Below are positions 767 through 29,159 of a stretch of DNA of 64,000 nt, one piece after another. Position numbers and translations under genes: made by a program. The stretch is taken from assembly GCA_031414955.1 (NCBI GenBank), contig JANOQV010000146.1:19917-83916 (forward strand), written 5' to 3'. Each line of letters starts with the position of its first letter. The stretch's first letter is position 1. The notes beneath the pieces are model-generated. The model did no database searches. It was not told where the DNA came from and saw nothing but the letters and a program-made list of their open reading frames with translations. The stretch is from Pedosphaera sp. (GTDB lineage: Bacteria; Verrucomicrobiota; Verrucomicrobiia; Limisphaerales; SIBH01).

Positions 767-778
767 GCACTGTTCCCA

Positions 779-1939
779 ATGGCTATTCCTCTGACCTACA
801 GCCTCCGCCACCTGCGTCTCCGCTGGCGCTCGACGCTCATCACCACGCTGTGCATCGCCCTGGTCGTGGCCGTGTTCGTGATGCTGATGTCATTGGCGAA
901 CGGATTGCAGGCGACCTACATCAGCTCGGGCGATGCACGCAATCTGATCGTGCTCCGCCAGGGTTCCATGGCCGAGTCGAGCAGCCAGATCACGATCGAC
1001 AACGTGCGCCAGGTCAAGTTCCTCGCCGGTATCGCGCGCGGCGCCGGCGATGAACCGCTGGCCTCCGCGGAGATCATGGTCCTCATCACTGTGCCCCGCG
1101 CCAGCGGGGGCAAGGCGCACGTCCAGGTGCGCGGGTTGAGTGCCGCCGGCTGGCAGTTGCGCACGCAGGTAAAAGTCCTGCAAGGCCGCGCGTTCAGGCC
1201 GGGCCAGCGCGAGTGCGTCGTGAGCAAGAAGGTGGCGGAGCGATTTCCCGATCTCGCGTTGGGCCGGACTTTCCGATCCGGCAAGCACGCCTGGACCGTG
1301 GTCGGTGTCTTCGAGGCGGGCCGCACGGCTTACGACTCCGAGGTGTGGGTGGACGCTGATGAAGCACGCTCCGCCTTCAACCGCACATTCTACGGCTCCA
1401 TCCTGCTGCGGCCCGTGGATGACGCCGCAGTGCTCGCGCTGAAGCAGCGCATCGAAGGGGACAAGCAGTTGCAGCTTCGCGTGCTCACCGAGCCGGAATA
1501 TTACGCCGAGCAGACCAAGACCGCCGCGCCCATCCGGTTCTTCGGCGTCGCGCTGGCGGCCGTGATGAGTATCGGAGCCGCCTTCTCGGCGATGAATGCC
1601 ATGTATGCCAGTGTCGGCCGGCGCGCGCGGGAGATCGGGACGCTGCGCGTGCTGGGCTTCCGCCGACGGAATATCTACTTCGCCATCATGCTAGAGTCCT
1701 TGTTCATTGCGATTGTCGGCGGCGTGATCGGCTGCGCATTATCTCTACCGATGCACGGACTGGCCACAGGCACCTTCAACTGGAGCACCTTCGCCGAGGT
1801 GGCGTTCGAGTTTCGCATCACGGGCCAGTTGCTCGGCGCGGGCCTGGTCTTCGCGATGGTCATGGGCGTGCTGGGCGGATTGCTGCCCGCGCGGTACGCG
1901 GCCCGGAAGCCAGTCCTGGAAGCGTTGCGAGGAAGCTGA
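779..1939 (+). CDS. ABC transporter permease (MacB/FtsX family)
   Basis: N-terminal TM, periplasmic domain, 'RAREIGTLRVLGF' motif and 3 C-terminal TMs. Paralog of the upstream gene. Confidence 0.9.
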   Translation: MAIPLTYSLRHLRLRWRSTLITTLCIALVVAVFVMLMSLANGLQATYISSGDARNLIVLRQGSMAESSSQITIDNVRQVKFLAGIARGAGDEPLASAEIMVLITVPRASGGKAHVQVRGLSAAGWQLRTQVKVLQGRAFRPGQRECVVSKKVAERFPDLALGRTFRSGKHAWTVVGVFEAGRTAYDSEVWVDADEARSAFNRTFYGSILLRPVDDAAVLALKQRIEGDKQLQLRVLTEPEYYAEQTKTAAPIRFFGVALAAVMSIGAAFSAMNAMYASVGRRAREIGTLRVLGFRRRNIYFAIMLESLFIAIVGGVIGCALSLPMHGLATGTFNWSTFAEVAFEFRITGQLLGAGLVFAMVMGVLGGLLPARYAARKPVLEALRGS

Positions 1940-1941
1940 CC

Positions 1942-4740
1942 ATGCTCCGCTTTCTCAACCTTCACCAATGGGTCGTCGGCTTTTTTGCCGCGTTGGCGCG
2001 GTATTCCATCAAGCATCCCAAGCGCGTCATCCTCTGTGCCTTGCTGGTCACGCTGGCGGTCGCGCCCGGGGCGCTGAAGCTGAAGCTCCGCACCGACGGT
2101 CATGCCCTGGTGGACAAGAGTGCTCCCGAAGTTCGCTACGACCAGTTGGTGCGCGAGAGATTTGGCATCCAGGATCCGGTGGTGGTCTTGATCGAAGCGA
2201 CGCATCCCGACGGCATCTACAACGCGGACACGTTGCAACTGGTGCGCGAACTGACCGAGGAATTCACGCGCCTCAAAGGCGTCGATTCCAACAAAGTGGT
2301 GAGCCTGGCCAACCAGCGGGGCTTCCGCAATCGCCCGGCCACGTTGCACTTCATGACCTTGTTGGAAAACCCGCGCCAGACGCAGGCCCAACTGGCCGAG
2401 CTGCGCGATGACTTGCGGCGTATCGAACTTTACACCGGTACGATTGTATCTTTCGACGGCCAGTCCACCGCCATCATGGTTGGCGCACCCGACGGGACTG
2501 ATCGGACCGCACTTTATCAGCAGGTGCGCGCAGTCATCTCCCGCATCACTGGCGGTGCGGACAAGATTACGGTCACAGGCCCGCCGGTGGCCGAGGCACT
2601 TTTGGGCACGCACATTCTGGAGGACCTCGGGGTGCCGGCGGCGCTTTTGGGCACCAGCACCCGCAGCGACGGAGACGGCTCCACGGGCTTTTCCAACCTC
2701 CACGAGCTTCGTCGCTTCATCGCCCGGCGGGTGGGGCTGGTGCCGGTGGCGATTCTGATCATGGCGCTGATTTTCCAAATCAGCTTTCGCCGCACTGTGG
2801 CCAGCGTGCTGCCTCTGATTGAGGTCGGTGCCTGCCTCGCCTTCACCTTCGGCCTGATGGGCTATTGCGGCGTGCCAGTCTATCTCACCATTGCGGTCAT
2901 GCCCGTGCTGCTCACGGCCATGGCGGTCACGGATGAGATTCACATCTACAGCCGCTACTTCGCGCTGGTGCATGAGCGTCCCAGTGCGCCTCAACCCGAC
3001 CTCGTGCGCCTGACGATGGAGGAAATGGTCTGTCCCATCGCCAATGCCTCGCTCACCACCGCCATCGGCTTTGTCTCGTTTGCCTTTTCGCCGCTGCCGC
3101 CGGTGCAGGCGTTTGGCATCTTCACCGCCGTCGGGTTAATCTTCTGCCTGTTCTGGACGCTCTGCGTGCTGCCTGCGCTGTTGACGCTGATTCCAAAGAG
3201 TTGGGTGATGACGCGTGGTGCCAGGGAGCGTGGTCTTCCGGCTGCTTCAACCTCCGCGGACTCAACAGCGTCAAAGCGGCCTGTTGGTCGCGCCCCCTTC
3301 GGACTCTTCGCCCTCTGGGCTGTTCGTCGCCGCTGGTGGATTGTGGGCGCGGTTGGTCTGGCCGTTGCCCTCACACCCCTGGGCCTGCGCCGTCTCGTTA
3401 TTCAAGACAGTTGGATTGATGGCTTCGAGCCGGAGAGCGAATTCAGCCACGCCACGCGCACCATCAACGAGCATTACCACGGCATGCACCTGCTCAAGGT
3501 GAGCCTCGACGCTGGCGAAACCCTGCGCGGCATGGTGGCCGCCACAAACGTAAGCTTCGCGAGAATTCTTCTTCCCACCAATCTCGTGGCGCAGCCGCAG
3601 TCCCTCGCGGGCCGCTGGCTTTACCTGTTTGCCGGCGACGCCTCGAACGCGCCTTCGTGGCGGGCCTCCATCGAATCCGCCACCGTGACGGGGGACAAGC
3701 TTGTCGTCATCACGCAGCAACGGGAATCAGACTCCATCGTCTGGACGAACCTGCCGCAGCTCGCTCACGTCCGCTTCGAGATCATTTCCCAGCCGTTCTT
3801 GCAGCAGCCCACGCTCGACGCTATTGCGAAGCTGGGCGCGTTCATCGAGCAGCATCGTGACTGCAAGGTAGGCAAGGTCTTGAGCGCACCCGATTACGTG
3901 GCGACGACGCGATTCATGGTGCGTCCCAACGAAGCCGGCTCGCGCTTCGTGCCCACCAACTCAATCGAGATCAAGTTACTCTGGGACTATTACCGCATCG
4001 TGCGCGGCCCGGAACAATTGCGTGAAGCCGTGGACACCAACCACGCCAGCGCGGTGCTGACCATATTTCTGAAGGAGGCCAACTTCCGCGACACCGCCCG
4101 GCTCTTGGCGGACATCCGCGACTACGAGCGCCGGGAGCTGATGCCGCTGAACATCCGCCTTGGCTTCGCCGGCGACGTGGCGGTGAGCCAGTCGCTCATC
4201 CGCGGCATCGTCACCACGCAGATGCAATCACTGTTCGGCTCGCTCTTGGGAATCTATCTCGTCACTGCGCTGCTGGGTCGCTCGTTGCGCTGGGGGTTGT
4301 ACGCGGTGATTCCCTGCACGCTGGCGGTGCTTTTCAACTTCACCGCCATGGGCTGGCTGGGCATTCCGCTCGGCGTGGCCACCTCCATGTTCGCGGCCAT
4401 GACGCTCGGCAACGGCGTCGATTTTGCGATTCATGTCCTGGAAGGTTTCACGGCTGCCCGCGGCCGTGGGCTGTCTCCTGATGAGGCTCTGGCGGAATCG
4501 CTGACGCGCACCGGACCCGCAGTGGTGGTGAACACGCTGGCCATTGCGCTGGGCTTTGGCGTGCTGATGTTGTCCCAGGTGCCGGCCAATGCCCGGCTCG
4601 GCTCGTTGATAATTCTCGGAATCGTGAATTGTCTGCTGGCGTCCCTCTTCTTGCTCCCAGCACTGCTCCATTGGTGGCCGCTGAAGGGTTCAGTCGATTC
4701 CACAACCAGCGCGCCGACGAACGCTCAAGGTGTTCCGTAG
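1942..4740 (+). CDS. MMPL/RND-family exporter (932 aa)
   Basis: Two TM blocks with two large extracytoplasmic loops. RND-like motifs 'AMAVTDEIHI', 'SLTTAIGF', 'GNGVDFAIH'. Starts 2 nt after the permease stop. Confidence 0.85.
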   Translation: MLRFLNLHQWVVGFFAALARYSIKHPKRVILCALLVTLAVAPGALKLKLRTDGHALVDKSAPEVRYDQLVRERFGIQDPVVVLIEATHPDGIYNADTLQLVRELTEEFTRLKGVDSNKVVSLANQRGFRNRPATLHFMTLLENPRQTQAQLAELRDDLRRIELYTGTIVSFDGQSTAIMVGAPDGTDRTALYQQVRAVISRITGGADKITVTGPPVAEALLGTHILEDLGVPAALLGTSTRSDGDGSTGFSNLHELRRFIARRVGLVPVAILIMALIFQISFRRTVASVLPLIEVGACLAFTFGLMGYCGVPVYLTIAVMPVLLTAMAVTDEIHIYSRYFALVHERPSAPQPDLVRLTMEEMVCPIANASLTTAIGFVSFAFSPLPPVQAFGIFTAVGLIFCLFWTLCVLPALLTLIPKSWVMTRGARERGLPAASTSADSTASKRPVGRAPFGLFALWAVRRRWWIVGAVGLAVALTPLGLRRLVIQDSWIDGFEPESEFSHATRTINEHYHGMHLLKVSLDAGETLRGMVAATNVSFARILLPTNLVAQPQSLAGRWLYLFAGDASNAPSWRASIESATVTGDKLVVITQQRESDSIVWTNLPQLAHVRFEIISQPFLQQPTLDAIAKLGAFIEQHRDCKVGKVLSAPDYVATTRFMVRPNEAGSRFVPTNSIEIKLLWDYYRIVRGPEQLREAVDTNHASAVLTIFLKEANFRDTARLLADIRDYERRELMPLNIRLGFAGDVAVSQSLIRGIVTTQMQSLFGSLLGIYLVTALLGRSLRWGLYAVIPCTLAVLFNFTAMGWLGIPLGVATSMFAAMTLGNGVDFAIHVLEGFTAARGRGLSPDEALAESLTRTGPAVVVNTLAIALGFGVLMLSQVPANARLGSLIILGIVNCLLASLFLLPALLHWWPLKGSVDSTTSAPTNAQGVP
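3225..3296. repeat. Degenerate GGAG-REP doublet, in frame within the MMPL gene
   Basis: ggagcgtggtcttccggctgcttc ... aagcggcctgttggtcgcgcccc forms an imperfect inverted repeat (needs G:T pairs). It encodes the linker 'RERGLPAASTSADSTASKRPVGRAP'. Confidence 0.45.
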
Positions 4741-5153
4741 GGGACGAGCGCCTCACGCAAAGTCTTCGGCACCGGCGTCGGCGTGAGTTTCTCGCCCTCC
4801 CGACGCAGGCAGGCGATCTGTTGCTGTCCGCGGGCCATCAGTTCCTGCGTCCCGTTCTTTACCCGCCAGTATTCGAAGAGCAGCGTGATGCGGCTCTGGG
4901 TCAACTCGCCCAGCCTCATGCGAATGACCACTTCGTCGAAGGCGTAAAGCTCGGAGAGGTATTCGCACTGCACGCTGACGGTCGCCAGACTGAGGCCGCG
5001 CGACAACTCAGCGATGATGTCCGGCGCGTGATCGTGCAGAAACATCTCCCGCACGCGCCCCTGCCACGAGACGTGGTTCACGTAATAGACGTTCCCGACG
5101 AGGTTGGTTTCCTCGAAGCTCACGATGTGACGGTGTTCGTAGGCGAGGCTCAT
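4725..5153 (-). CDS. E10: Enediyne biosynthesis thioesterase E10 (hotdog fold, 4HBT-like), 142 aa
   Basis: 'YEHRHIVSFEETNLVGNVYYVNHVSWQGRVREMFL' matches the SgcE10/CalE7/DynE7-type signature. Lies directly downstream of PKSE. ATG at 5153; the ORF-track extension is repeat-derived. Confidence 0.93.
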   Translation of the reverse strand: MSLAYEHRHIVSFEETNLVGNVYYVNHVSWQGRVREMFLHDHAPDIIAELSRGLSLATVSVQCEYLSELYAFDEVVIRMRLGELTQSRITLLFEYWRVKNGTQELMARGQQQIACLRREGEKLTPTPVPKTLREALVPYGTP

Positions 5154-5173
5154 GCGACGGGAAGACTGCGGGG

Positions 5174-5314
5174 AAAAACACCAAACACAAAACGGCAAAC
5201 ACCAAAGAAACACCAAGCTCCAAACTTCAAACACCAACTGGCGGTCGAAAGGCTCGGGTTGGTGTCGGCGTTCTTGGAGCTTAACTGATGTTTGATGTTT
5301 GGTGTTTGATGTTT
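5174..5314. repeat. Heptamer tandem-repeat element with two oppositely oriented arms
   Basis: Left arm aaacacc/aaacaca/aaacggc/aaacacc...caccaag/ctccaaa/cttcaaa/caccaac. Right arm ttggagc...tgatgtt/tgatgtt/tggtgtt/tgatgtt. Confidence 0.75.
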
Positions 5315-8300
5315 CATTCCACGCACACCCCTACCACCATCGTCTCCTCCCGCTCCCGCCCCTTGGTCACTCCTGTCACGACCGTCCTCGTACCGCTCTG
5401 CATCGTGATCCAGCCATCGGGCTGGCGGTCGGCCAGCGTGAGCGGCGCGTCGGAGAGAGCGCCGGATTTCTTCAGGCATTCGAGCGCGGCCCAGACGCGC
5501 GTGGCGGCGGTGTCGAGGTCGCCGCCATTGGCGACCAGTTCGGCGAGGCGGAATCGTTCCGCGCCCAGCAGACCGCGCCAGGTCTCGGGTGTGCGCGCGG
5601 AAATCATTTCCATGTCGCAGCCCACGCTGCCGGTGCTGCTCATGGCCAGGGTCAGATCACCGGCCCGCGTGACGGAGAGATGGTTCCCGCCCGGCACCTC
5701 CGGCTTGCCATCCGCGCGATGATGGAGAGTCGCGTCGTCACCGAGCAGGCGGCGGACGCTCTCCTCGCTGCCTGCGCCGCGCGCCGCGCTCACCGAGATG
5801 CGGGCGGCCGGCAGCAATTCCTCCAGGCGGCGCTCGACGTACGGGCCGAACAAACCATCCGGCCACGCGCTGTCAGTGGACAACTCCTCGACCTTGCGCA
5901 GGCGCAAGCCCTGCCAGGCCTCCAGCACCGCGCCGCCGGGACCGAGCAGTTCCAAATCGTATTCAAAGGTGTCGCCTTCGCGCTTCACTTCGCGCGCGTG
6001 CAGGAGCAGTTCCGGCAGGCAATCGCCGCTGTGCCACTGCTCCATTCGGCACGGCACCTCGCCCACCACGATGCGGCGCACGCCGACCGGCAGCAGCCGC
6101 GCGTGGGGGATGCAGGCCTGGATGGCGTGAATGGCGGCGTCGCGCACCGCGCCACAGCCGAGCACGCGTTCCTGCGGCAGGTAGCGGCCAAACCAGTCCG
6201 GCCCGATGTAAGGCGCGAGTTGCACCGCGCACTCCCGCGCCGTGAGCAGGCGATAGTTCAACACCCGGCGGAAACGTCCGGTGTGGAAGAGCAGCCGGTC
6301 GTAGAGGTCGCGTTCGATATCGAGCGCCGCGGCTGATCCTGGTGATCGGCCATCGGCCATCGGCCAATGGCTTTTCGTAGCGACGAATTGTTGCGCGCTC
6401 CCTCCGAAGCGGCACACCGCTTTGAAATGATCCGCCTGAAAACCCGTCTGCTCGCAGCGCAGCGCGACTTCGATCACGCCCGACTCGCGGACCAGCGCCG
6501 CGACGCGAATGACGTTCTTCCCGCCGCGCGGCACCACCACCGGACGAGACAGCTCGACGTTTTCAAAACTCGGCGGCTCGCTCGAACCAGCCAGGGCCAT
6601 CGCCACCTGGGCCATCGCTTCCAGTCCCATCACCGCCGGGAACAGCGGCTCGCCGTGGAAGACGTGTTCATCGACATACGGATCGGAGTCGGACGAGAGC
6701 GTCGAGTCCACGATCAACTCCACGCCGGGATAAAAGACGCGCGTGTGTTCGAGGAACCGGCGGAAGGGCAGCTCCGGCTTGGTGAGATTCAGCGTCGGCA
6801 TCTCGCCGAAGCGTCCGCTGATGACCACAGAAGTGGCTGGCAACTCGCGCCGCAAAAGCTCTTCGAGAATCTCCACGCCGGCCTCCGGTGAGATCGGCGT
6901 GATGCCCTGTTGACGCAACGATTCAATGCGCCCCAGCCGCGCGCCCATGCCCACGCCCGACCAGACGGACCACTCGGCGGCCAGGCAGCGGCAGCGCGGA
7001 TGCGCGGTCTGGAATTCCTCGGTGAGTTGGGTAAGCCATTCGTTCGCGACGGCGTAGTCGGCTTCGCCCTGCAACCCGGCGCGTCCGATGATCGAGCCAA
7101 AGGTGACGAAGAGTCGAAGCTTCTCCGGGTCGAGAGCGGCGAGCACATGGCGCGCGCCGTCAATCTTCGGCGCCAGCGTGCGGCGGAAGGCCGTCTCGTC
7201 GAGCGTGCCGAGGAGTTGCGGGACGTTCGCGCCCGCCGCATGAATGAAAGCCGTGATCGTCCCAAGCTCGCGTTGCACTTCCGTGAGCGCCATCGTCACC
7301 TGCGTCTCATCGGTCACATCCGCCGCCACGTAACGCACGCGGACCTTGACGGCGGCGAAGCGCTCCAGGTTGGCCGAAAGCTCGGCATCAGTGGCGGGCT
7401 GCGAGCGTCCCATGAGCACAAGCCGCGCGCCGGACTTGCGCGCCAGGTGCAACGCGCACTCCGCCGCGATGCCCTTGCCGCCGCCGGTGACGAGCAGGAG
7501 ATCGTCTGGACCAAGCGGCAACGCTCCGACACTTGCGGGAACCATCTCGCCTCGGTCGCCGAAAGGAAGAGCTTTCATCACCAACTCATGCCGCCGCCCC
7601 GACTCGTCGTAGCGCACGTCGCGGTGACCGTGGGCAAGTGCGGATTCGCGCACGATCCACTCGACGGCTTGGGGATGCTGCGGCGGCAGTTCGAGGACGA
7701 GGGTGTGAATGGTCGGCGACTCAAGGTGTAGCGTCCGGGCCAAGCTGCCGGCCCGCTGGCCCGTTTGCACGAGCACGAACTTGCCCTCGCCGAGGGCAAG
7801 CGCGGCCTTCGCGCTGGCGAGCAGCAGCCTGATTTGAGCTGCTTCAATCCGGGGCGGCAGGCAGACGATCACGCCGGCGCCGGGCATCGAGGTGAGAGCA
7901 GGACGCAATGCCGCCGCCAGGGGATCGGTCTCGATGGCGAATACTTGCCATGCTGAACTTTGCCCTTCGTTTCGCGCGGACTCGGCGGTCCGCGCTCCAA
8001 GCGGTGCCTCGATCCATTCGCAGACGAACGGACGCACCCACGAATCAACTCCCGATGGAACGCGTTCCGTCTCATTGAGCGCCGCGCCACGATTGCGCGT
8101 GAGTTCTTCGAGCGCGGCGGCGGCCCGGCCCACCGTGGCCGTGGCGAAATCCGTGAGACCGATGAGGGGCGGCAGCCCCAACCGCTTCGCCGCCTCGGCC
8201 ATGATCTGGCCCACGGAGATCGAATTGAGGTGCAAGTCTCCGAGCAGGCGGCTCTCGCTCGTGACCGTAGCCACGGGCAGTTCCGCGCGCTCGGCCACGA

Positions 8301-11196
8301 GCTGGCGGATGAGGTCGAGCGGTGTTGCCGTGGTTGAAATGGTTTCGGGTTTCGGGTTCCGGGCTTCAGGTTCTTCAGCCGGCGCAGCCTCGCGCAGAAT
8401 GGCGCTGGAGTCGGAAACGGGCGCAAGTTCGCAGGGATTGACGAAGAACTTCGGCTGCCAGTCGAGGCGAAACGGGCGCGTGATGCGGCCTGAAAACAGG
8501 GCACGGGCGTTGACTGGTGCGCCCAGGGCGAACGCGGAGGCGACGGCCTGCCAGAGTCCGCGCAGCGATTCGCTTCCGGCGTCGATGGACACGACGGGGG
8601 CTTTCACGGAGTCGCGGGCCAGGCCGCTCAGGACTTCGCCGGGACCGACCTCGATCCACAAGTCCACTTCGCGGTTGGCGATGGCCAGAGCCTCGATGAA
8701 CTTCACGGGCGATGTGACCTGACGGGAAAGCAATTCGCCCAGGTCTTCCGTCGTGGTCAACGGTGCGCCGGTGACGGTGGAAACGACGCGGCGCGACGGC
8801 GAGTGGATTTCCTCGCGGCTCAACTGCGCAACGAGCGCGGGCGCGGCGGCGGCGACGAGCGGCGTGTGGAAGGCGTGCGAGACGGCCAGCCTGGTGGCGC
8901 GCAGCCCGCGCGCCTGCGCGGTGGCGATGACGGCGGCGACGGAAGCGGCTTCGCCCGCGATGACGGTCTGATGCGGCGAGTTGTAGCCAACGATGGAAAC
9001 AGATTCGCCGCGCAGCGCGAGGCTTTCCACCACGCTGGCGGGCGCGGCGATGGCGGCCATAGCGCCGGTCGGGCTGCCAAGTTCGGACATGGCGCGGCCC
9101 CGTTCGCGGGCGATGCGGAGCAAGGCTGCTTCATCGAAAGCCCCGGCCCAGTGCAGCGCGCAAATCTCCCCGAGGCTGTGGCCGACCGCGACGCTGGCGG
9201 TGATGCCAAAAGTTTGGAGCAGCCTGGCCCCGGCCGCGGAGGCGGCGGCAATCGCGGGTTGCGCCACGGCGGTGGAGATGCCGTCGCTGTCCGCCGGCAG
9301 ATTCGCCTCGACGTAGGTTGAGCGTGCGCTGTCGAAGCGGCGGCGGAAAATTCCGCCGCTGAGATTCGCGGGCGATCCCTGGCCGGGGAACAGAAAGCCG
9401 AGACGCGGCGCGGTGTCGCCGGAGCCGAGGAACAGGCCGGAGTCAAAGTCGAGTTTCGCGGTCACGCCGTCGAGCAACCAGGAGTGCAGCGTGGCAAGGC
9501 GTTCGGCGAATTGCACGGGAGTCGAAGCGATGAGCGCGGCGCGCGACCGTTGTGGAGCGCCGGTCTCCGACCCGGCATGATCGGCGTCACTCAACTCGCC
9601 GGGTCGGAGACCGGCGCTCCGGGCCAGTTCGGCGGCGACATCAGCGAGTTCCGAAAAGGAAAGCCGTGCGGCGAAGGTCAGCAGGTGTTCGATCTGCTTG
9701 AGCATCGCGTCGGTGTCATCGGTGGCGAGCAGGAAGATTTCGCAATCCTGGGCGGAGGCGCCGAGCGAAAGATCGCGCGGCGTGAGGGTCGCGTGGCGTG
9801 AGGTGGTCGTGTTCTCCAGCGTCAAGTGGGTGTTCATGCCGCCGAAACCCATCGCGCTCACCGAGGCGCGCAGCGGGCGGTCGCTACGCCACGGCTCCGG
9901 CTCGCGCAGCACGCGGAGCGCGGCGTTCGCCGCGGTGAGTTCGGCATGCGGACGTTCGCAGCCGGTGGTCGGGGGCAAGGTCTGCGTGTGGACGGCGAGG
10001 GTGGCCTTGATCAGTCCGGCGATTCCCGCCGCCGCCTTGGTGTGGCCGATGTTCGCCTTGATCGTGCCGATGACGGCGGGCGCGGCGTCGGCCCGGGCTT
10101 CGCGGCGCGCAGTGGAAATCACTTTCAGTTCCGTGGCGTCGCCGACGTTGGTGCCGGTGCCGTGGCCCTCGAAGTATTCCACGGTGTCGATGCCGTAGCC
10201 GGCGCGGCGATAGGCGCGGCGAATGGCCTGAAGCTGTCCATCAACTTCGGGGCGCGTGATGCCGCCCGCGCCGTCGGAGGAAATCCCCCAACCGCGAATG
10301 GTGGCGTAGATGCGGCGGCCCGACGCGACCGCATCCTCGTGGCGCATGAGCGTGACGAAACCGCAGCCCTCTCCGGGCCAGAAGCCGGCGGAACGGGCAT
10401 CGAACACGCGCATCAACTCGGGCGCGAGCGCGCCGGTCTTGGCGAAGCCGACGATCTCGAACGGATCGAGACTCAGATCGACACCGCCGGCCAGGGCGAC
10501 ATCGAGGTCACCCGCCGCGAGCGAGGAACAGGCATTGGCCACGGCGAGCAGCGACGAGGCGCACGCGCCATCGACGGTGTAGCCGCCGCCCTTGAGATCG
10601 AACTGGTTGCAGATGCGGCCGGCGATGGTGTTGGAAAGTCCGCCCGCGAGCGTCTCCTCGCCGACGGGAGGGAAGGGGAGTTTGTACTTCACTTCGAGGG
10701 CGGTGAGAAATTCCCCGCGCTGTTCACCGGTCCAGCCTTGCTCGTTCAACGCCGCGTCGAGCGTGCGCCGCACGTACGGCCAGCGGAGGCGCATGAGGTT
10801 GGCGCGGGAGAATTCCCCCGTAAGCGTGTTGCCGAGAACCACGCCGGTGGTTTCGCGGGGAAGGCCGGCGGCGTCCTTGAACCCCGCGTCGGCCAGTGCC
10901 TGCGAGGCGACATCGAGCGCGAGCCAGTGCGCGAGGTCAGCCGAGCGGTAGGTGCTGCCCACGACTTTGAAGGCGACGCGGTCAAACTCGTAGCCTTCGA
11001 TGACGGCGGCGTTGGCGGCGTAGGTCTTGTCCGGCGCGAGCGGGTCGGCGGAGAAATAATCCTCGCGGCGCAGGCGCTCGTCGGGGAGGCGGCGGAAGGC
11101 GCGGCGTTGCGCGAGCACGTTCTCCCAAAGCTGTGACGGCGTGCGGGCCTCGGGGTAGAGGCAGGCGAGACCGACGATGGAGATGCCAGAGGTCAT
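5314..11196 (-). CDS. pksE: Enediyne-type iterative type I polyketide synthase PKSE (KS-AT-ACP-KR-DH-PPTase), 1960 aa
   Basis: KS 'DGACASS', 'HGTGT', 'NIGHTKAAAG'. AT 'GHSLG' and 'HAFH' (malonyl type). ACP 'LLGDLHLNSISVGQI'. KR 'GGGKGI' and 'YAVANEWL'. DH 'HVFHGEPLFP'. C-terminal PPTase 'VGCDME' and 'WAALECLKK'. This domain order is characteristic of PKSE. ATG at 11196. Confidence 0.96.
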   Translation of the reverse strand: MTSGISIVGLACLYPEARTPSQLWENVLAQRRAFRRLPDERLRREDYFSADPLAPDKTYAANAAVIEGYEFDRVAFKVVGSTYRSADLAHWLALDVASQALADAGFKDAAGLPRETTGVVLGNTLTGEFSRANLMRLRWPYVRRTLDAALNEQGWTGEQRGEFLTALEVKYKLPFPPVGEETLAGGLSNTIAGRICNQFDLKGGGYTVDGACASSLLAVANACSSLAAGDLDVALAGGVDLSLDPFEIVGFAKTGALAPELMRVFDARSAGFWPGEGCGFVTLMRHEDAVASGRRIYATIRGWGISSDGAGGITRPEVDGQLQAIRRAYRRAGYGIDTVEYFEGHGTGTNVGDATELKVISTARREARADAAPAVIGTIKANIGHTKAAAGIAGLIKATLAVHTQTLPPTTGCERPHAELTAANAALRVLREPEPWRSDRPLRASVSAMGFGGMNTHLTLENTTTSRHATLTPRDLSLGASAQDCEIFLLATDDTDAMLKQIEHLLTFAARLSFSELADVAAELARSAGLRPGELSDADHAGSETGAPQRSRAALIASTPVQFAERLATLHSWLLDGVTAKLDFDSGLFLGSGDTAPRLGFLFPGQGSPANLSGGIFRRRFDSARSTYVEANLPADSDGISTAVAQPAIAAASAAGARLLQTFGITASVAVGHSLGEICALHWAGAFDEAALLRIARERGRAMSELGSPTGAMAAIAAPASVVESLALRGESVSIVGYNSPHQTVIAGEAASVAAVIATAQARGLRATRLAVSHAFHTPLVAAAAPALVAQLSREEIHSPSRRVVSTVTGAPLTTTEDLGELLSRQVTSPVKFIEALAIANREVDLWIEVGPGEVLSGLARDSVKAPVVSIDAGSESLRGLWQAVASAFALGAPVNARALFSGRITRPFRLDWQPKFFVNPCELAPVSDSSAILREAAPAEEPEARNPKPETISTTATPLDLIRQLVAERAELPVATVTSESRLLGDLHLNSISVGQIMAEAAKRLGLPPLIGLTDFATATVGRAAAALEELTRNRGAALNETERVPSGVDSWVRPFVCEWIEAPLGARTAESARNEGQSSAWQVFAIETDPLAAALRPALTSMPGAGVIVCLPPRIEAAQIRLLLASAKAALALGEGKFVLVQTGQRAGSLARTLHLESPTIHTLVLELPPQHPQAVEWIVRESALAHGHRDVRYDESGRRHELVMKALPFGDRGEMVPASVGALPLGPDDLLLVTGGGKGIAAECALHLARKSGARLVLMGRSQPATDAELSANLERFAAVKVRVRYVAADVTDETQVTMALTEVQRELGTITAFIHAAGANVPQLLGTLDETAFRRTLAPKIDGARHVLAALDPEKLRLFVTFGSIIGRAGLQGEADYAVANEWLTQLTEEFQTAHPRCRCLAAEWSVWSGVGMGARLGRIESLRQQGITPISPEAGVEILEELLRRELPATSVVISGRFGEMPTLNLTKPELPFRRFLEHTRVFYPGVELIVDSTLSSDSDPYVDEHVFHGEPLFPAVMGLEAMAQVAMALAGSSEPPSFENVELSRPVVVPRGGKNVIRVAALVRESGVIEVALRCEQTGFQADHFKAVCRFGGSAQQFVATKSHWPMADGRSPGSAAALDIERDLYDRLLFHTGRFRRVLNYRLLTARECAVQLAPYIGPDWFGRYLPQERVLGCGAVRDAAIHAIQACIPHARLLPVGVRRIVVGEVPCRMEQWHSGDCLPELLLHAREVKREGDTFEYDLELLGPGGAVLEAWQGLRLRKVEELSTDSAWPDGLFGPYVERRLEELLPAARISVSAARGAGSEESVRRLLGDDATLHHRADGKPEVPGGNHLSVTRAGDLTLAMSSTGSVGCDMEMISARTPETWRGLLGAERFRLAELVANGGDLDTAATRVWAALECLKKSGALSDAPLTLADRQPDGWITMQSGTRTVVTGVTKGREREETMVVGVCVE
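9554..9620. repeat. REP doublet (REPIN-like) lying in frame inside pksE
   Basis: Perfect 23-bp inverted repeat: ggagcgccggtctccgacccggc (9554-9576) and gccgggtcggagaccggcgctcc (9598-9620), with a 21-nt spacer. Confidence 0.85.
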
Positions 11197-11201
11197 GTGG
11201 A

Positions 11202-11257
11202 AAACTCCAAACTCCAAACTCCAATCTCCAAATAAACACCAAGCTCCAAGCTCCAAC
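11202..11257. repeat. Heptamer tandem-repeat element immediately upstream of the pksE start
   Basis: aaactcc x3, aatctcc, aaataaa, caccaag, ctccaag, ctccaac. Same pattern as the left arm at 5174-5238. Confidence 0.8.
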
Positions 11258-11332
11258 AGCAGGTGGACGGCGTTGGATCGCTATGCTGGCGACGCCGCAC
11301 GCCTTCGCCATTCACCATGTGGCATTGGTCAT

Positions 11333-12307
11333 TCATGTGGCAGGGACGGCGTTGGTTTGCACGGGGGCTTGAGTCTTTTTCTCGACAGGTTGTGGCGACG
11401 GGAACTTGCCGAGCATATTCCAGATGTGCAGTGAGATTCCGCGAATGGCGCAGACGGTCACGAGGGCGAAGAAGAGGCCAAAGACGAGGTGCATCACCTG
11501 GAGGACGCCATAGACCATCGCGACGGAGAAACCGAACAGCGCCTGACGCCAGGGATGAATGGGCGTCGTGGCCGGGTCGGGCACCATGTAGAGCGTGAAG
11601 ACAATGAAGGCCGCGCTGCTCATGGGCATGAGCGGCACGTAGAGCGGCGTGCCGAAATACCAAGCGCGTAACAGGCCTTGCAGCACGAAGCCGAGAATCC
11701 ACGCGCCGCAGAGCGGGAGCCGGCCGGTGAAGCAGCCGTGGATGATGATGCCCGTGAGGAGAATGAAAGCTGGAATGACCCAGTGCCAAGCGCCGGTGAT
11801 ATTCTCGGTGAAATGATACGGCGGGGCGAAGCCGACCTGCGGGAAGAGCAGCAGCGTGGCGGCGATGCCGAAGTTCGAGGGGTTGAAGATGTGCTGGTAG
11901 TGGCCGTTCCCGACGGGCGCGCGGAAGAAAACTTTGGACGCGATGGAGAGCACAACGGCGAAGGCGATAGGCCAGAGCACCTCGTTCGGGTAAAGCAACA
12001 TGCCGCAGGCAAAGCCGGGAATGAGCGCGGGCGGCAAGGCGTTGAGAAATGCGCCAGGGCCACCGGTGAAGCGGGGCGCGCGGTTCTTCGCTTTGGCATC
12101 GACCCAGTCCAGGAGGAATTGCGCGAAGATAGCCGTGGTGATGGCGACGATGGGCGAGGCCCACGATTGCTCGAAGCCGAGGAGAGTGTGGCCAAGGATG
12201 TTCCACACGATCATCAGGATGACGAAGTACCAGAGCGCGATGAGGCGCAGCTTCGGATTCTTCTGCGGGTAGAAGAGGACGGTGGTGTTGAAGGCGGAGG
12301 ATTTCAT
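11333..12307 (-). CDS. unbU: Enediyne biosynthesis protein E5/UnbU (membrane protein, NqrB/RnfD-like fold)
   Basis: 'NILGHTLLGFEQSW', 'HIFNPSNFGI', 'APPYHFTEN', 'YMVPDPATTP'. Sits between E4 and PKSE. ATG at 12307 overlaps the E4 stop (ATGA). Confidence 0.9.
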   Translation of the reverse strand: MKSSAFNTTVLFYPQKNPKLRLIALWYFVILMIVWNILGHTLLGFEQSWASPIVAITTAIFAQFLLDWVDAKAKNRAPRFTGGPGAFLNALPPALIPGFACGMLLYPNEVLWPIAFAVVLSIASKVFFRAPVGNGHYQHIFNPSNFGIAATLLLFPQVGFAPPYHFTENITGAWHWVIPAFILLTGIIIHGCFTGRLPLCGAWILGFVLQGLLRAWYFGTPLYVPLMPMSSAAFIVFTLYMVPDPATTPIHPWRQALFGFSVAMVYGVLQVMHLVFGLFFALVTVCAIRGISLHIWNMLGKFPSPQPVEKKTQAPVQTNAVPAT

Positions 12308-14280
12308 TTGGGCGAAGAAAATTGGGCAACCTGGGAATTCACCTTGCCGAGGCGCACGGTGTGCCAGCCGGGCCTGAGTCGCAGTTCGGTGCGCTGCGGT
12401 TGGCCGGCGAGGTCGCGCCATTTCAGTTCCACACGTACCGGTTGATTCGCATCCACGCGGCCGAGGCCGAGGTGAATGTCAGGACTGCGGCGGCCCGAGT
12501 GACCGCTGCCGCCATCGATCTGACCAAGGACTTTTTTCCCGTTCGCCAGGTGCGCAATGGCTTGCGCGCCAAACGCGGGCCGCCCCGCCGTGTCCGCACC
12601 GGGATGGCCGGCACGTTCGAGCAGCGGTGAATTCGCAGCGTCGGCCAGTGGGAGCAACAGGTGCAGGCCGAGGAACGCGCCGGTGTTCGTGGACTCGTTG
12701 TGGAAGAAGAACGACGGCTCCCATTGGTTGGCGAAGGCGAAGTCGAGGCGTCCGTCGCCATCCACGTCCGCCAGCGCGATGCCTTTGCTGACCATCGGCT
12801 CGTTGAAGCCGACCTGCGTGGCGACGTCGTAATAGCGCCCATCGGCGGCGCGCACGAAGAACGGGTTGATGTCGTGGCCGCTCAGATCCGCGCCGGGCTT
12901 GAAGGTCGGCCACACGCGCGGGTCGTGGACGATTTTGCTGTTGCTGGTGCCGAGCGCCTGGAGTTCGGGCCAGCGGTTGATCTTGCCCTTGAGAAAGCCG
13001 ACCGCCTGCATCGCCTCGACCGTGCCGTCGTTGTCGAAGTCGGCGAGGCGGCAGTCCCAGCCCCAGCCGCTGCGCGAAAGGCCGAGCTTCTCGCTGTTTT
13101 GGAAATAGGGCGCGAGGCCCGACTTCATTGCGTCGAGTTGCCCGGTGCTCTGCCAGAGGAAATGGCTTTCGGTCAGGCCGAACTCGGTGGCGATGTTGCT
13201 CACGTAGATGTCGAACAGTCCGTCGCCGTTCACATCGCCGAAGTCGCAGCCCATGCCCTTGAAGGAGTCGTGGCCGAGCACGCAGGACTTGGGCGTGGTG
13301 AAATCGCGCCGGCCTTCCAGTTCAGCGAACTCCAGATGACCGGGCTTGGAACGGTTGTGCATCAGCCGGTCGGGACCGAAGTCGTTGCCGAAATAAATCT
13401 CGGGCAACTGGTCGCCATCAAGATCTGCGACGCCGATGGCGAGCGTCCACCCGCGCGTGACTTCAGGGCGGAAGACATCCTTCTGCTCGGCGAAGCTCAC
13501 GGCGGGCGCGGTGCCGGCTTTGGCAGACTGCCAGAGGAAGACGTGCTTGTAGCCGCCGTTTAAGGCCTTGGCCTTGCCCTCGTGCATCGTCTCCACGCCG
13601 GTGGCCTTGGCATCGAGAATGCGCGCGCCGTCCTGGAAGTAATTTCCAATGATGAGGTCGACGTGACCGTCGCCATCGAGATCCGTCTGCACCGCGCCAT
13701 TGGAATACCAGCGCTCGCCGCTCGCCGTCAGCTCGGTTGCGGTGTAGCTCGTGCGGGCCAGCGCTGCGCCCGACACGTTGCGCAAATAAATCACCGGGGT
13801 GCGGCCCCAGAAATAGACGAGCACGTCGGGCAGACCATCCTCGTTGAAGTCCCCGGCGAGAGCGCCCATCGGTGCGGTCGTGGCGGCGTCGAACGGCAGC
13901 GGAGCCGCGTCGAGAGCGAAGGGCGTGTAACGATTCCCGGTGCCAGGCGCGGGCGCGACGGTCACGAGATCAGTGCGCGGATCGATGTGGATGAGATCGT
14001 TCGGCAGCCCGTCATCGTCGAGATCGGCGAAGGTCGCCCCGGCGCCGAGCGAGGAGATCCAGGCCGAGATGCGCGCCAGGCTCGGATGCACGGCGCGGAC
14101 GCTCTTGTAGGGCGGATGGTTGGCGACCTCGGCCAGCGGGAGCTTGTGGAACTTGAAGCGCGCGGCCAGTTGCGCGGACTCGGTGGACGTGATTTTCGGA
14201 TACTGCGTGGCGGCGTACAGTCCGAGCACCAGGGCGAGACCGGCGAGGCTGGCGGCGTAATGGCGAACTCCGTTCTTCAT
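12304..14280 (-). CDS. unbV: Enediyne biosynthesis protein E4/UnbV (CRTAC1-like FG-GAP repeats + ASPIC/UnbV domain)
   Basis: N-terminal hydrophobic segment, seven DxD/NxDG FG-GAP-type motifs, 'VLGHDSFKGMG', 'GWGWD', and C-terminal 'QIDGGSGHSGRRSPDIHLGLG'. Confidence 0.92.
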   Translation of the reverse strand: MKNGVRHYAASLAGLALVLGLYAATQYPKITSTESAQLAARFKFHKLPLAEVANHPPYKSVRAVHPSLARISAWISSLGAGATFADLDDDGLPNDLIHIDPRTDLVTVAPAPGTGNRYTPFALDAAPLPFDAATTAPMGALAGDFNEDGLPDVLVYFWGRTPVIYLRNVSGAALARTSYTATELTASGERWYSNGAVQTDLDGDGHVDLIIGNYFQDGARILDAKATGVETMHEGKAKALNGGYKHVFLWQSAKAGTAPAVSFAEQKDVFRPEVTRGWTLAIGVADLDGDQLPEIYFGNDFGPDRLMHNRSKPGHLEFAELEGRRDFTTPKSCVLGHDSFKGMGCDFGDVNGDGLFDIYVSNIATEFGLTESHFLWQSTGQLDAMKSGLAPYFQNSEKLGLSRSGWGWDCRLADFDNDGTVEAMQAVGFLKGKINRWPELQALGTSNSKIVHDPRVWPTFKPGADLSGHDINPFFVRAADGRYYDVATQVGFNEPMVSKGIALADVDGDGRLDFAFANQWEPSFFFHNESTNTGAFLGLHLLLPLADAANSPLLERAGHPGADTAGRPAFGAQAIAHLANGKKVLGQIDGGSGHSGRRSPDIHLGLGRVDANQPVRVELKWRDLAGQPQRTELRLRPGWHTVRLGKVNSQVAQFSSPK

Positions 14281-15224
14281 CGGGTGATCTTTTTTCCGTT
14301 GGAGAAATTCTTCTGAATGCGCCGCCGCCAGACTTCAAACGCCGGTTCGTCGCCACTGGCGGGAAGGTTTTCCAGCGCGGCATCGGTCAGGGCGGAGGCG
14401 TCCGCGCTCGACATGCCGCAGAGCGCCCAGCAGGCGCGGTCAGCGTAGGGCGTGGGATTGCCGGCGTGATGCCGGGCCTTGGCGGCGAAGGCCGCGCCCT
14501 GGGCGAGTTGCGGATGGAATTTTCCGGCGGCGGCGACCAGCGACTTGAGTTCCTCCTCGCTCACTTCGCCGGCGTAAACGCTCGCGAGTCCCACGCCACT
14601 CCACAAATCAGCGCGGCGCGATTCAGCGAATCCGTTGATGGTCGCCGCCACTCGCGCAACCTCCGCGCCCTCGATGAACCACAGGCTCCGGCCCAATCCT
14701 TGATCGAACACCCGTTCCGCGTAGCCGCTGATGCGCTTCGGGCGCGGGCCGTCGTTCAGATACTTCGGCCAGTGGAAGAAACCTTCGTGGAAGCCGTAGC
14801 CGTCGATGACCAGCCAGCGGAGCAACGGGTCGAGGGACTGCATCTGCTTCTCGATCCGGCCCGGCAAACGCGCCGCCGCCCAGCCGATGGCGACATGCAC
14901 CATGTAGGTGTGGGCGTCGCCGGGACCGGCGAGGAACTGCCGCACGCGATCCCGCCGCCACGGGGTGAGGCGATCCAGAATCGCCAGGGCCATGGCCGCG
15001 CCTTCATAGGCGAAGCCGCGTTCGGTCGCGGCGATGGAGTCCAGGCGCGGAACGAGGAAGGCATGGTCGGCGTTCTCCAGGGCGGCGTGGTATCCGGCCA
15101 CGAACGTCGCGCCGACCTGCTCGATGCGTTCGCGGCGTCCATTCTCACCGCCGCGAAAACCGCGTCGCGCGAAAGTTGTTTCAACTTCCGAAAGGCCGAA
15201 CATGAGTTTCAGGATCGCGCCCAT
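14277..15224 (-). CDS. unbL: Enediyne biosynthesis protein E3/UnbL (DUF1702)
   Basis: 'ETTFARRGF', 'RGFAYEGAAM', 'WLVIDGYGFHEGFF', 'DQGLGRSLWF', 'DLWSGVGLASVYAG', 'AQGAAFAAKAR'. ATG at 15224; the stop overlaps the E4 start (ATGA). Confidence 0.92.
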   Translation of the reverse strand: MGAILKLMFGLSEVETTFARRGFRGGENGRRERIEQVGATFVAGYHAALENADHAFLVPRLDSIAATERGFAYEGAAMALAILDRLTPWRRDRVRQFLAGPGDAHTYMVHVAIGWAAARLPGRIEKQMQSLDPLLRWLVIDGYGFHEGFFHWPKYLNDGPRPKRISGYAERVFDQGLGRSLWFIEGAEVARVAATINGFAESRRADLWSGVGLASVYAGEVSEEELKSLVAAAGKFHPQLAQGAAFAAKARHHAGNPTPYADRACWALCGMSSADASALTDAALENLPASGDEPAFEVWRRRIQKNFSNGKKITR

Positions 15225-15287: not shown

Positions 15288-15318
15288 GAAAAAGACCGGG
15301 ATTGCTCCCGGTCTTTTC
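15288..15318 (-). terminator. Intrinsic terminator after the giant repeat gene (possibly bidirectional)
   Basis: Minus strand reads gaaaagaccggga-GCAA-tcccggtctttttc: a strong stem with a GNRA loop and a U tract. Confidence 0.8.
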
Positions 15319-15348: not shown

Positions 15349-18300
15349 CTACGGGCAGATGACGCGGTAGAATTTGTTCACGCCCGGTTCGACCGGCAGC
15401 GTGACGCCGGAGGCTCCCGGAACATCCGTCCACACCGTGGTACCAGGCCCGCTTAACGCCGTGGTGCATTGCAGGCGGAAGCCGGTGCCGGTCCACGAGA
15501 TGGTCACGCTGGTGCCATCAGGCGAACGCGTGATGGCAAGGGACGCCGGTCCGACGCACGGCGATCCCGGCACGTTGAGGTGCATGGACGCCGGGCCACT
15601 GACGGCGGGACTCCAGTTCTGGCCGCCATCGAGGCTGATCTCCGTGAAGATGTCGAAGAAGCTGCCGATGCGGTAGGGCGCGCCGGTGGGCGAGGTACGA
15701 ATGCTGGTGCGGCCCAAGGAAGCCTTGCTCGGACTTTCACGGACCATCACTCCGTTGGGCAGGCTGCCGCCGCTGATGTTCAAGGCCAGCATCTCGGTGT
15801 CAAAGAAGCGGGTGTCGCCGCTGTCCTGACTGCTGGTAACCCGCGTCGTGACGGCGGCTGGAGCCGTGACATGAATCGGCTGCTGGCCGCCCTGGTGCAG
15901 ATCAAATGTCACCATGGAGCCGAAGCCGTGAGTCACGCTGCCACCTGGAGGAGGCGGAGGCGAGTTGGTCAGGAATCGCTCATGGCTGGCGTTGCTGATG
16001 ATGATGCCATTGGCGTAGAGCTGGTGCCACTGCTGCGGGCTGATGTACTGCCCGTTGAGCGGCGGCAGATTAGGAGTGGAGGCCGGCTGCTCAGGCGCTT
16101 CGCAGATCAGCTCCACATGGGCGGCGGCGGGCACGGGCGCCCAGTTTTGGCCGCCGTCCAGGCTCAGTTCGACGAAGACATCAAAGAAGCTGCCGATGCG
16201 GGACGTGCCATCAGACTGCGGCGCGATGGCCGTGCCGCCATGTGATTGGCGGGTCGGACTTTCGCGCAAGCGGATGCTGGGCGGCAGGTCGCCACCCTGA
16301 ATGTCCAGTTGCAGCATCTCGGTGTCATAGACTTGAGTGCCGTCGGACTCGGTGCCGCGGTGGCGCACGCTCACCTCTACTTGTGCCGGCGCGCGCATGG
16401 GAACGAAGTTCACTCCACCGTCCTGCGACACCTCCATGTCCACCTGCGACCCAAAGGTGTGCGTCTGGGACGAGCCCGGGGGCGGCGGCGGCAGCGATTG
16501 GGTGAAGAACTTGTGCTTCACGTCACGGATGACGATGCCCTGGGCGGTCAGAATGTGGTAGAGCGCCGGACTCACGTAGAGGTCATTGGGCGGCGGCAGC
16601 AGTTGCGTGCCTGCCGGTACGGAAGGTACGGTCAGTGGGTCGCGGCCCAGTTGGACTGGCGCGGCCTCCTCACCGGGCGACCAAGTTGCGCCGCCATCCA
16701 GGCTGAGTTCTGTGAACACGTCGAAGAAGCTGTCGATCATGAAGCCTCCGCCGGGCGCGGACTGCACGGCCGTGCGTCCGATCGAGGCCCGGGTCGGGCT
16801 TTCCCGAATCATGAGGCCGCCGGGGCTGCTCAGGTTGAGCGCCAGCATCTCGGTGTCATAGACCTGCGTGCCGCTTGGCTCAACGCCCACATGCGTCACC
16901 TGCACCGTCACATCCGCCGCGCCCGCCAGCGGGGACCAGGTCTGCCCGCCGTCCGACGATACCTGCCCGGAAACTTGCGAGGGGAAGGTGTGGATCTGGC
17001 TGCCGCCCGGGGGCGGCGGCGGGAAGCTCTGCAGGAAGCGGCGATGGCTCACGTTGCTGATGATGATGCCGTTGGCGTAGAGCTGATGCCACTGCTGCGG
17101 CGAGACGTACTCACCCTGCTGCGGCGGCAGCAGAGGCGTCGGGAACCAGCGCGGTTTGCGCGGGCGCACTGTCACCGTGAAGCTGCAACTGGCGCTGCCG
17201 TTCACACTACTGGCGGTGCAGGTCACCGTGGTGGTTCCGACCGGGAAGTTGCTTCCACTGGGCGGCGTGCAGGAGTAAGTCACCGGCGCGCCACATGTAT
17301 CCACCGGCCCCACCGTCGGGGCGAAGGTCACGACACGGCCCGCCGGCGTGAGGGCGAAGGCTGTGATGTTGGCCGGGCAGACGATGAGCACCGTGCAGGG
17401 CACTGGGTTCGGCACCACATGGACGTTGGCCGGACCGGTCAGCGAGGGCTGCCAGGTCTGTCCGCCGTCCGCGCTCAACTCCGTAAAGATGTCAAAGAAG
17501 CTGGCCACACTGTGTGTGCCGTCGGCTGCGCTGGTGCGAATGCTGGTGCGGCCCAGCGAGGCCTTGCTCGGGCTTTCGCGCACCATCATGCCGACGGGCA
17601 GGCCACCGCCGCTGATGTTGAGCGCCAGCATCTCGGTCTCGAAGAAGCGGGTGTCACCGTCGCTCTGCATTTCGCGCACGCTCACCGTCACCTGGGCGGG
17701 CAGGGTGGTGTGCTGCCACGTCGTCCCGTTGTTGAGCGAGAGGTCGCACTCCACGTCCGATCCGAAGCTGTGCGTCTCAGTCACGCCCGGGGGCGGCGGC
17801 GGGAAGGACTGGGTGAAGTGTTTGTGGCTCACGTTGCTGATGATGATGCCCTGGGCGTAGAGCGCGTGCCACTGCTGCGGGCTGATGTACTGCCCGTTGA
17901 GCGGTGGCAGATTGGGATTGGGCACCGGCATGGGCGGAGCTTCGCAGATCAGTTCCACGCGGGCCGGGGTCGGCGCAGGGGTCCAAGTTTGGCCACCGTC
18001 CACGCTCAGATCCACGAAGATGTCGAAGAAGCTGCCGATGCTGTGCCCGTTGGGCGTCGGGGCGATGACCGTGCCGCCTTGCGAGGCGCGGGTCGGGCTT
18101 TCACGGAGCATCACTCCGACCGGTAGATCGCCACCCTGCAGATCCAGTTGCAGCATCTCAGTGTCATAGAGCTGAGTTTCATCGGGCGCAGTGCCGCGGT
18201 GTTGCACATGGACTGCCACCGCCGCCGGGGCACGCCGGGGCTGGAAGGTCTGGCCACCGTCGAGGCTCACTTCCATGTCCACTTGCGAACCAAAGGTATG

Positions 18301-28800: not shown

Positions 28801-29159
28801 GCCTGCGCCAGAGCACTGGAGATGGCGTCGCTGGGGCCTTCGCGCTGCTGGATGGAGAGGAATTCATCGATGGCCTCCTCGAAGCGGCGTTGCAGCAAGT
28901 GCTCGTAACCGTGAAATGGAATCAGCCCGCGCTGGTTCAAGCCCGCGATACGCGGAATGTGGAAGCGATGAATGGCGTAGAGAAAGAACAGCGCCCGCAC
29001 TCGTTCGTAAAGATTCTCCGAACGGCGGCGGAACTCATCCAGCGCCGTTCCTTCGGCCAGCAGTTGTACGAGCGAAACACCTTGGCAGATCGCGTCCAGC
29101 GATTGATTGCGCACCGCCGGATCGCTCGCGGTAATGATCTCCGTCAGCCGGCTGCTCAT
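25827..29159 (-). CDS. Fused GHMP-family sugar kinase (fucokinase-like) + UDPGP-family UTP-sugar-1-phosphate uridylyltransferase, 1110 aa
   Basis: Kinase half: '[13 protein letters not shown]', '[10 protein letters not shown]', 'GGGWQD', 'GGMSGGG'. C-terminal half: '[17 protein letters not shown]', 'HPVGHW', 'HNIDT', 'GGGLARVNG'. Confidence 0.8.

Follow-up and report, generated by a model that had tools for sequence, protein, structure and literature searches.

A verrucomicrobial enediyne polyketide synthase cassette and its recurring neighbours, a predicted secreted beta-barrel protein and an MMPL exporter

What might a complete set of enediyne core genes make in a bacterium that keeps no enediyne tailoring genes beside it? 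The question is raised by a 64,000-nucleotide stretch (here the window, with positions counted from its first letter) of contig JANOQV010000146.1 from Pedosphaera sp. (GCA_031414955.1), an uncultured sediment bacterium of the Verrucomicrobiota; the whole contig is 83.9 kb long. A preliminary description of the letters alone reported five genes there, E3, E4, E5, the enediyne polyketide synthase (PKSE) and the E10 thioesterase, treated the cassette as exceptional and as standing among unrelated flanks, and proposed a minimally processed polyene or polyyne as its product, whether pigment, lipid-like or protein-bound. The cassette is genuine. Its flanks are not unrelated, since the giant gene at 15349-25554 and the MMPL/ABC set at 1-4740 recur with it in relatives, and this recurring partnership of barrel and MMPL genes with the cassette is what appears to be new, cassettes outside actinomycetes being already known. 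The features used below are these (aa, amino acids):

1..766, plus strand: MacB/FtsX-type ABC permease 1, 380 aa, starting 377 bases left of the window (Pfam FtsX, MacB_PCD)
779..1939, plus strand: MacB/FtsX-type ABC permease 2 (Pfam; kept beside the cassette in order genome G196)
1942..4740, plus strand: MMPL/RND exporter, 932 aa (Pfam MMPL, sterol-sensing)
4725..5153, minus strand: E10 hot-dog thioesterase, 142 aa (phmmer; 49% to SgcE10)
5176..5314, no strand: heptamer repeats between the genes, arranged as inverted copies (a repeat dispersed through the genome and not specific to the pathway)
5314..11196, minus strand: PKSE, iterative KS-AT-ACP-KR-DH-PPTase, 1960 aa (49.5% to SgcE, motifs, KS tree)
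11333..12307, minus strand: E5 membrane protein, 324 aa (42.5% to SgcE5)
12304..14280, minus strand: E4 FG-GAP/ASPIC-UnbV protein, 658 aa (Pfam; 46% to SgcE4)
14277..15224, minus strand: E3, DUF1702, 315 aa (Pfam E 4e-114)
15290..15317, minus strand: perfect 12-bp hairpin with T tract, terminator-like, between the giant gene and E3
15349..25554, minus strand: giant secreted barrel protein (predicted), 3401 aa (Pfam, repeats, AlphaFold, co-occurrence)

The five cassette genes are co-oriented on the minus strand in the order E3-E4-E5-PKSE-E10, and the ATGA overlaps at E3/E4 and at E4/E5 are present in the sequence as described. Global alignment to the C-1027 proteins of Streptomyces globisporus (plasmid SGLP1) gave identities of 38.9% (E3), 46.2% (E4), 42.5% (E5), 49.5% (PKSE) and 49.3% (E10), a similarity well above what chance would give. 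Pfam recognizes KS, AT, KR and DH in the PKSE, while ACP and PPTase were assigned from motif alignment; all 12 of the motifs checked over these six domains align with SgcE, in keeping with the claim that they are intact. In a quick tree of 74 KS rows (nine loci omitted as probable duplicates; NcsE, CalE8 and DynE8 not included) the window KS lies within a 69-row PKSE clade containing SgcE, with a likelihood-ratio support (SH-aLRT) of 95, which supports the PKSE membership that had been proposed for it. E10 matches SgcE10 (PDB 4i4j, identical to SgcE10 over the aligned stretch), CalE7 and DynE7 in phmmer at E 4e-43 to 2e-40. E3 is the sole DUF1702 match in the host genome, E4 combines FG-GAP and ASPIC/UnbV domains with a hydrophobic segment at its N-terminus, and E5 has no Pfam match and five hydrophobic segments; among solved structures none was found for E3 or E5, and E4 matched CRTAC1 only. 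This is a genuine, intact member of the enediyne PKS cassette family. Tandem heptamer repeats flank the PKSE gene at 5176-5314 and 11202-11247, and 117 similar clusters occur genome-wide; a promoter scan did no better than on shuffled sequence.

The giant protein predicted upstream of E3 has a signal-peptide-like start, an unassigned N-terminal domain, five blocks and a C-terminal tail, the motif of which occurs in 133 frames of the host genome versus 3 in a shifted control. Each block consists of one HYR domain and three barrel repeats of ~170 aa, making 15 repeats in total. AlphaFold models the repeat as all-beta with a predicted local distance difference test score (pLDDT) of 93; hydrophobic positions alternate along its strands, and the 40 aligned repeats share invariant His, Glu, Arg and Asp residues. 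A sialidase or propeller reading of the repeat was dropped, because the BNR/Asp-box Pfam matches amount to a short motif and the model is a barrel. The repeat family has no Pfam model and comprises 2554 clusters at E up to 0.001. We call the repeat of the giant protein type A; barrel domains beside other cassettes form subtypes B, C and D, tied to it by profile comparison (93.5%, 80% and 97.6%) and by iterated search, and many of these B, C and D barrels are small PEP-CTERM proteins. The AlphaFold model of a type-C domain reached a pLDDT of 42 only and was left out of the structural search. The host encodes a second barrel protein on contig C54 (L087:8420-16452; 1654 aa, with barrel domains of types C and A plus LamG and Ig domains), adjoining a second MMPL gene of the same subfamily (54%).

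The partnership emerges from a survey of 300 genomes of the order, in which DUF1702 was taken as the E3 marker. The type-A barrel was found in 18, DUF1702 in 10 and both in 7, against 0.6 expected; with all barrel subtypes counted, nine of the ten DUF1702 genomes, in 8 families, have a barrel gene beside the cassette, up- or downstream. On the other side of the cassette the MMPL gene converges on the E10 gene with a 16-nt 3' overlap. Its subfamily occurs in 10 of the 300 genomes, seven of them DUF1702-positive and all ten with a barrel (adjacent in six); an MMPL likewise stands at the cassette in G070, and in G196 an ABC permease pair about 70% identical to that of the window also converges on E10. 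Within an Acidobacteriota class, with 200 genomes counted apart from the centre, the barrel occurs in 7, DUF1702 in 8 and both in 6, i.e. the barrel is present in 6/8 cassette genomes versus 1/192 others. The six genomes with both hold 2-12 barrel copies, on other contigs or >100 kb from the cassette, so this match is not explained by linkage. Type-B barrel genes, searched with a profile built from those genes, were found only beside the cassette in four of five genomes tested, and two of three fetched Methylococcales loci show a divergent PEP-CTERM barrel directly before E3, then an MMPL gene. The adjacency of barrel and cassette recurs across phyla, with the barrel upstream, downstream, or between E3 and E4; in the four actinobacterial clusters examined there was no barrel match. 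Neither a barrel nor an MMPL partnership of the cassette was found in the literature searched, a coverage outside of which most subscription journals lie.

An E3 scan of genome contigs confirmed at least 540 relatives and returned 80 loci for examination, some of them probably from the same genomes as the order survey; as none extends more than 10 kb beyond E3, what lies on the other side of E10 is often out of view. Eleven bear Verrucomicrobiota labels, many bear those of Acidobacteriota or Planctomycetota, and others those of Proteobacteria, Chloroflexota or Cyanobacteria; two are labelled Bifidobacteriaceae, the one of these in the KS tree grouping with Verrucomicrobiota. Such numbers, together with cassettes already published, take away the exceptional standing first given to the cassette. 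Already by 2014, 7 of 61 cassettes lay outside Actinomycetales (PMC4480864), Methyloprofundus INp10 possesses the five genes (PMC8788690), and metagenomes are rich in non-actinobacterial enediyne KSs, Verrucomicrobiota not being among the phyla named in the accessible part of that report (PMC10308959); a verrucomicrobial host widens the known host range modestly. The distribution is patchy: DUF1702 occurs in 1 of 11 same-genus genomes, 1 of 40 relatives and 10 of the 300 order genomes. Several cassette loci have peculiarities of their own: (i) Divergent E4 paralogues (26-30%) lie beside the E3-PKSE cassettes of L029, L067, L068, L071 and L073, and in L067, L068 and L073 there are divergent E5 paralogues too, with a TPR-like gene between the E4 and E5 paralogues. 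(ii) NusG paralogues lie directly upstream of E3 at L023:9082-9714 and L048:9326-9898, which suggests antitermination control. (iii) G011 (L085/L086) and G078 (L101) show a reduced layout of giant barrel gene, E3 and PKSE, with E10 present in G078; this is possibly a simpler variant of the pathway.

The barrel repeat also leads towards a protein known from enediyne clusters. DynF (PDB 6ubl) folds into a barrel of eight strands that encloses palmitate; sungeidine biosynthesis requires its orthologue Sgd15, the loss of which abolishes all intermediates (PMC8725005). In Ktedonobacter robiniae a DUF6073 gene 2.3 kb from E3 encodes a protein matching DynF at E 9e-22, and DUF6073 is therefore the DynF family. 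A merged profile of types A and C (plus two divergent members) matched DUF6073 in a second attempt with a probability of 64% (E 7e-5, 87 columns), shuffled controls reaching at most 0.5% (n=20). A wide structural search with the repeat returned beta-barrels, namely PagL (Z 10.0), NspA, OmpW, avidins and DynF. Matches to DUF6073 and DUF6004 in the ESM Atlas (0.79-0.89, low recognition) were treated as leads only. From these comparisons we consider the repeat probably a remote homologue of DynF. Pulling the other way, earlier comparisons of the profiles with DUF6073 came out null (0.8% and 1.6%, with shuffles up to 6.9%), and DynF is 28th in the fold list (Z 6.8, root-mean-square deviation 3.7, 140 aligned), below unrelated barrels such as PagL. 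When the PDB was searched by sequence and by profile, starting from the alignments of types A, B and C, DynF was not among the matches; Foldseek found no counterpart of the repeat in PDB or BFVD at E up to 0.001, and the repeats score on neither Pfam DUF6073 (PF19550) nor DUF6004. Near another cassette lies a secreted-looking DUF6004 protein (L050:3-1400) with a weak match (37%) to the merged barrel profile.

Taken together, these genes could form a short pathway. PKSE and thioesterase yield a heptaene in homologous systems (PMC4480864, PMC9682884, PMC8341276), and here too PKSE and E10 would release a linear C15 heptaene. Later steps would plausibly take place at the membrane, given the membrane protein E5 and the N-terminal hydrophobic segment of E4. 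Work by Gui et al. from 2024 reportedly had the full cassette give an iodoheptaene, a diiodotetrayne and pentaynes, from which E3, E4 and E5 may be expected to turn the heptaene into iodinated or oxidized linear polyynes. The dedicated MMPL protein, perhaps with the ABC permeases, would then carry this hydrophobic, unstable product across the inner membrane, and secreted, probably DynF-related barrel domains would take it up, bind it and stabilize it as a surface chromoprotein; a dedicated MMPL together with secreted barrels suggests such export and surface binding. The carriers would number 15 in one surface protein here and elsewhere be single PEP-CTERM proteins or dispersed paralogues. No cyclized DNA-cleaving enediyne would be produced, because the oxidative core-tailoring genes are missing. 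We give about an even chance to this reading of the gene content as a whole, namely that a linear C15 polyene or polyyne is exported and then held by barrel proteins at the surface, with no classical enediyne being made. Of the product first proposed, the minimally processed polyene or polyyne remains the likeliest, and the barrel and MMPL partners favour its protein-bound form over a pigment or free lipid. More tentatively, and with doubt prevailing, the cassette outside actinomycetes may mainly serve a widespread system in which an MMPL-exported linear polyyne is carried by, or covalently attached to, DynF-like surface barrels, up to 15 per chain; this could be the ancestral use, with actinomycete enediynes and cytoplasmic DynF derived from it.

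Several observations weigh against export to a barrel carrier. DynF co-expressed with SgcE and DynE7 took up no heptaene (PMC8725005). A barrel was seen at only 26 of the 80 related loci and at 17 of the 37 long ones, and none at the loci of G549, G573, G576, G403, G427 and G715; the type-B barrel was found in none of four Methylococcales cassette genomes, and in Planctomycetia just one of four new cassette genomes gave a type-B match. Eight of the 18 type-A barrel genomes have no PKSE match, six of these being at least 92% complete, and two of the eight (G123 and G226) also have the MMPL. E5 has no match in either the G011 or the G078 genome. In the window itself the terminator-like hairpin stands between the giant gene and E3; it is absent from the output of a terminator scan, and its role as a terminator is putative. 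Kin genomes, moreover, do not count as independent cases, and some of the sequences that seeded the subtype profiles came from neighbours of the cassette. The many loci without a barrel, and barrel and MMPL without PKSE in G123 and G226, would also fit an unbound heptaene or polyyne retained in the envelope, where it would act as pigment, antioxidant or lipid, with the barrel and MMPL genes as a separate, often co-travelling surface module. So would the barrels without PKSE or MMPL in the well-assembled G094 and G158, and the second barrel-MMPL pair of the host, which has no cassette on its stretch. Of the alternatives this survives best, yet we hold it unlikely, as it leaves aside the unlinked co-occurrence in the acidobacterial class and an adjacency that recurs in several arrangements across phyla.

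The barrels might instead be enzymes or folding templates that cyclize or rearrange the exported polyyne extracellularly into a reactive product, which would make tailoring and self-resistance genes in the cytoplasm unnecessary. The invariant His, Glu, Arg and Asp residues would suit such a role, as would the loss of all intermediates without Sgd15 (PMC8725005), and the fold list includes dirigent, allene-oxide-cyclase and Diels-Alderase barrels. Their Z of 5.6-6.1 is within the background of the structural search, however, and 15 tandem copies or up to 12 dispersed paralogues would better fit stoichiometric binding. We therefore regard catalysis by the barrels as improbable and retain the carrier reading.

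Could the locus still encode a classical enediyne antibiotic, its tailoring and resistance genes being unlinked, too divergent, or missing from the 313-contig assembly? Five genes E3, E4, E5, E and E10 do define enediyne clusters (PMC4480864). The preliminary description saw no tailoring genes in the immediate flanks and pointed to the sequence left of the window; none was found in the 19.9 kb from there to the contig start, and no P450, epoxide hydrolase or glycosyltransferase is among the open reading frames (ORFs) of left flank and window scanned with Pfam. Genome-wide, SgcE1, E6, E7, E8, E9, E11, CagA, SgcF, SgcI, SgcJ and SgcA6 gave no tblastn match, the tailoring queries being 51 C-1027 proteins only, without the tailoring sets of ten-membered enediynes (calicheamicin, anthraquinone-fused); the apoprotein family PF00960 had no match in a search run without a positive control. 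The claim that a classical tailoring and apoprotein set is lacking therefore holds for the contig and, with C-1027 queries, for the genome. The three other actinobacterial loci that served as controls all keep E6-E9/E11 right beside the cassette. At the 80 related loci SgcE7, E8, E11, CagA, SgcF and SgcA6 have 0 matches and E6 and E9 have 2 each; an SgcR2-like AraC gene is near 16, an MMPL matches in 12, and the flanking ORFs contain one P450 (Pfam scan, 241 of 389 picked ORFs). The window locus is not a C-1027-type cluster, and bare cassettes are common. Some non-actinobacterial cassettes do have tailoring genes, as shown by the acidobacterial G427, in which a P450 with 38% identity to SgcE7 directly follows E10 (L128). 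The host genome does hold one P450 on another contig, a nonribosomal peptide synthetase on C266, one AHSA1 protein and, on C68 (L135:2753-8068), an ammonia-lyase gene with, behind it, a gene fusing halogenase-like and methyltransferase parts and then another FAD-dependent gene; C68 and C59 genes were set aside as tailoring in trans, being unlinked to the cassette. A classical enediyne is on this balance very improbable.

The host bin (G000) measures 6.5 Mb in 313 contigs and is 95.9% complete with 5.8% contamination. The proposed verrucomicrobial origin is upheld by the relatives of the helicase, for which eight of the ten with an organism name are Verrucomicrobiota (among the 120 relatives listed). 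In the quick KS tree the window KS nests among Verrucomicrobiota-labelled and same-order rows (SH-aLRT 91-94, not starred), with 74-81% identity to the former versus 65-67% to actinobacterial KSs, and close variants of the locus are present in two sediment runs from another study. That an actinobacterial cassette was joined to a verrucomicrobial contig in assembly or binning has a negligible chance and is largely refuted, for against the contamination and a cassette tetranucleotide distance at the 95th percentile of the host genome stand the KS grouping, GC content at third codon positions that matches that of housekeeping genes, and contigs from a second sample of the same study that span permease-MMPL-E10 and E4-E3-giant gene, bridging both cassette ends with zero differences.

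Among the remaining neighbours, an NTP-transferase gene and a 1110-aa sugar-kinase/UDPGP-like gene (25827-30001, minus strand) lie on the giant gene's strand, upstream of it; these sugar-nucleotide genes were rejected as cluster members, as the upstream gene differs in two other annotated loci. Left of the window (L001:5772-10240), a secreted M43 peptidase with dockerin, a Gly-rich protein and a cohesin protein are encoded in one gene run.

Two gaps in enediyne chemistry are long-standing, the polyene-to-alkyne conversion by E3, E4 and E5 and the role of DynF, and bare cassettes in many phyla have so far been interpreted as hidden enediyne producers. The results point to a shorter and different pathway with two partners, a barrel family lacking a Pfam model and an MMPL subfamily. 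A protein stabilizing such intermediates would also help in studying how the enediyne core forms. Cultured carriers of the cassette among the named loci are Aquisphaera insulae, Paludisphaera soli and Ktedonobacter robiniae. In the last a gene for a DUF6851/VCPO-domain, vanadium haloperoxidase-like protein lies between the DUF6073 gene and E3 (L068:6125-7705), of note in view of the iodination that the full cassette reportedly brings about.

Among known systems, the C-1027 cluster shares all five cassette genes and the order and orientation of E3-E4-E5-E. Unlike it, the window locus has no match to an E2 paralogue, E6-E9, E11, CagA, an epoxide hydrolase or a glycosyltransferase, and its cassette is flanked instead by the giant secreted barrel protein and the MMPL/ABC set. 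Published non-actinobacterial cassettes (Herpetosiphon, Haliangium, Cyanothece, Nostoc, Methylomicrobium and Methyloprofundus INp10) are likewise five-gene sets with no product demonstrated in the accessible portions of their reports (PMC4480864, PMC8788690, PMC10308959), which, unlike the present case, mention no barrel or MMPL partners. DynF and Sgd15 resemble the window repeats in having a beta-barrel fold and in being associated with a PKSE cassette, and there is a remote match between the profiles; DynF, however, is a single 211-aa domain forming dimers, while the repeats are predicted to be secreted, tandem and linked by HYR domains. The chromoprotein enediynes of the CagA type embody the same concept, in which an unstable chromophore derived from PKSE is held by a secreted protein (PMC4480864); unlike the CagA apoproteins, the candidate carrier here would be an unrelated, multivalent barrel protein with a sorting-like tail at its C-terminus.

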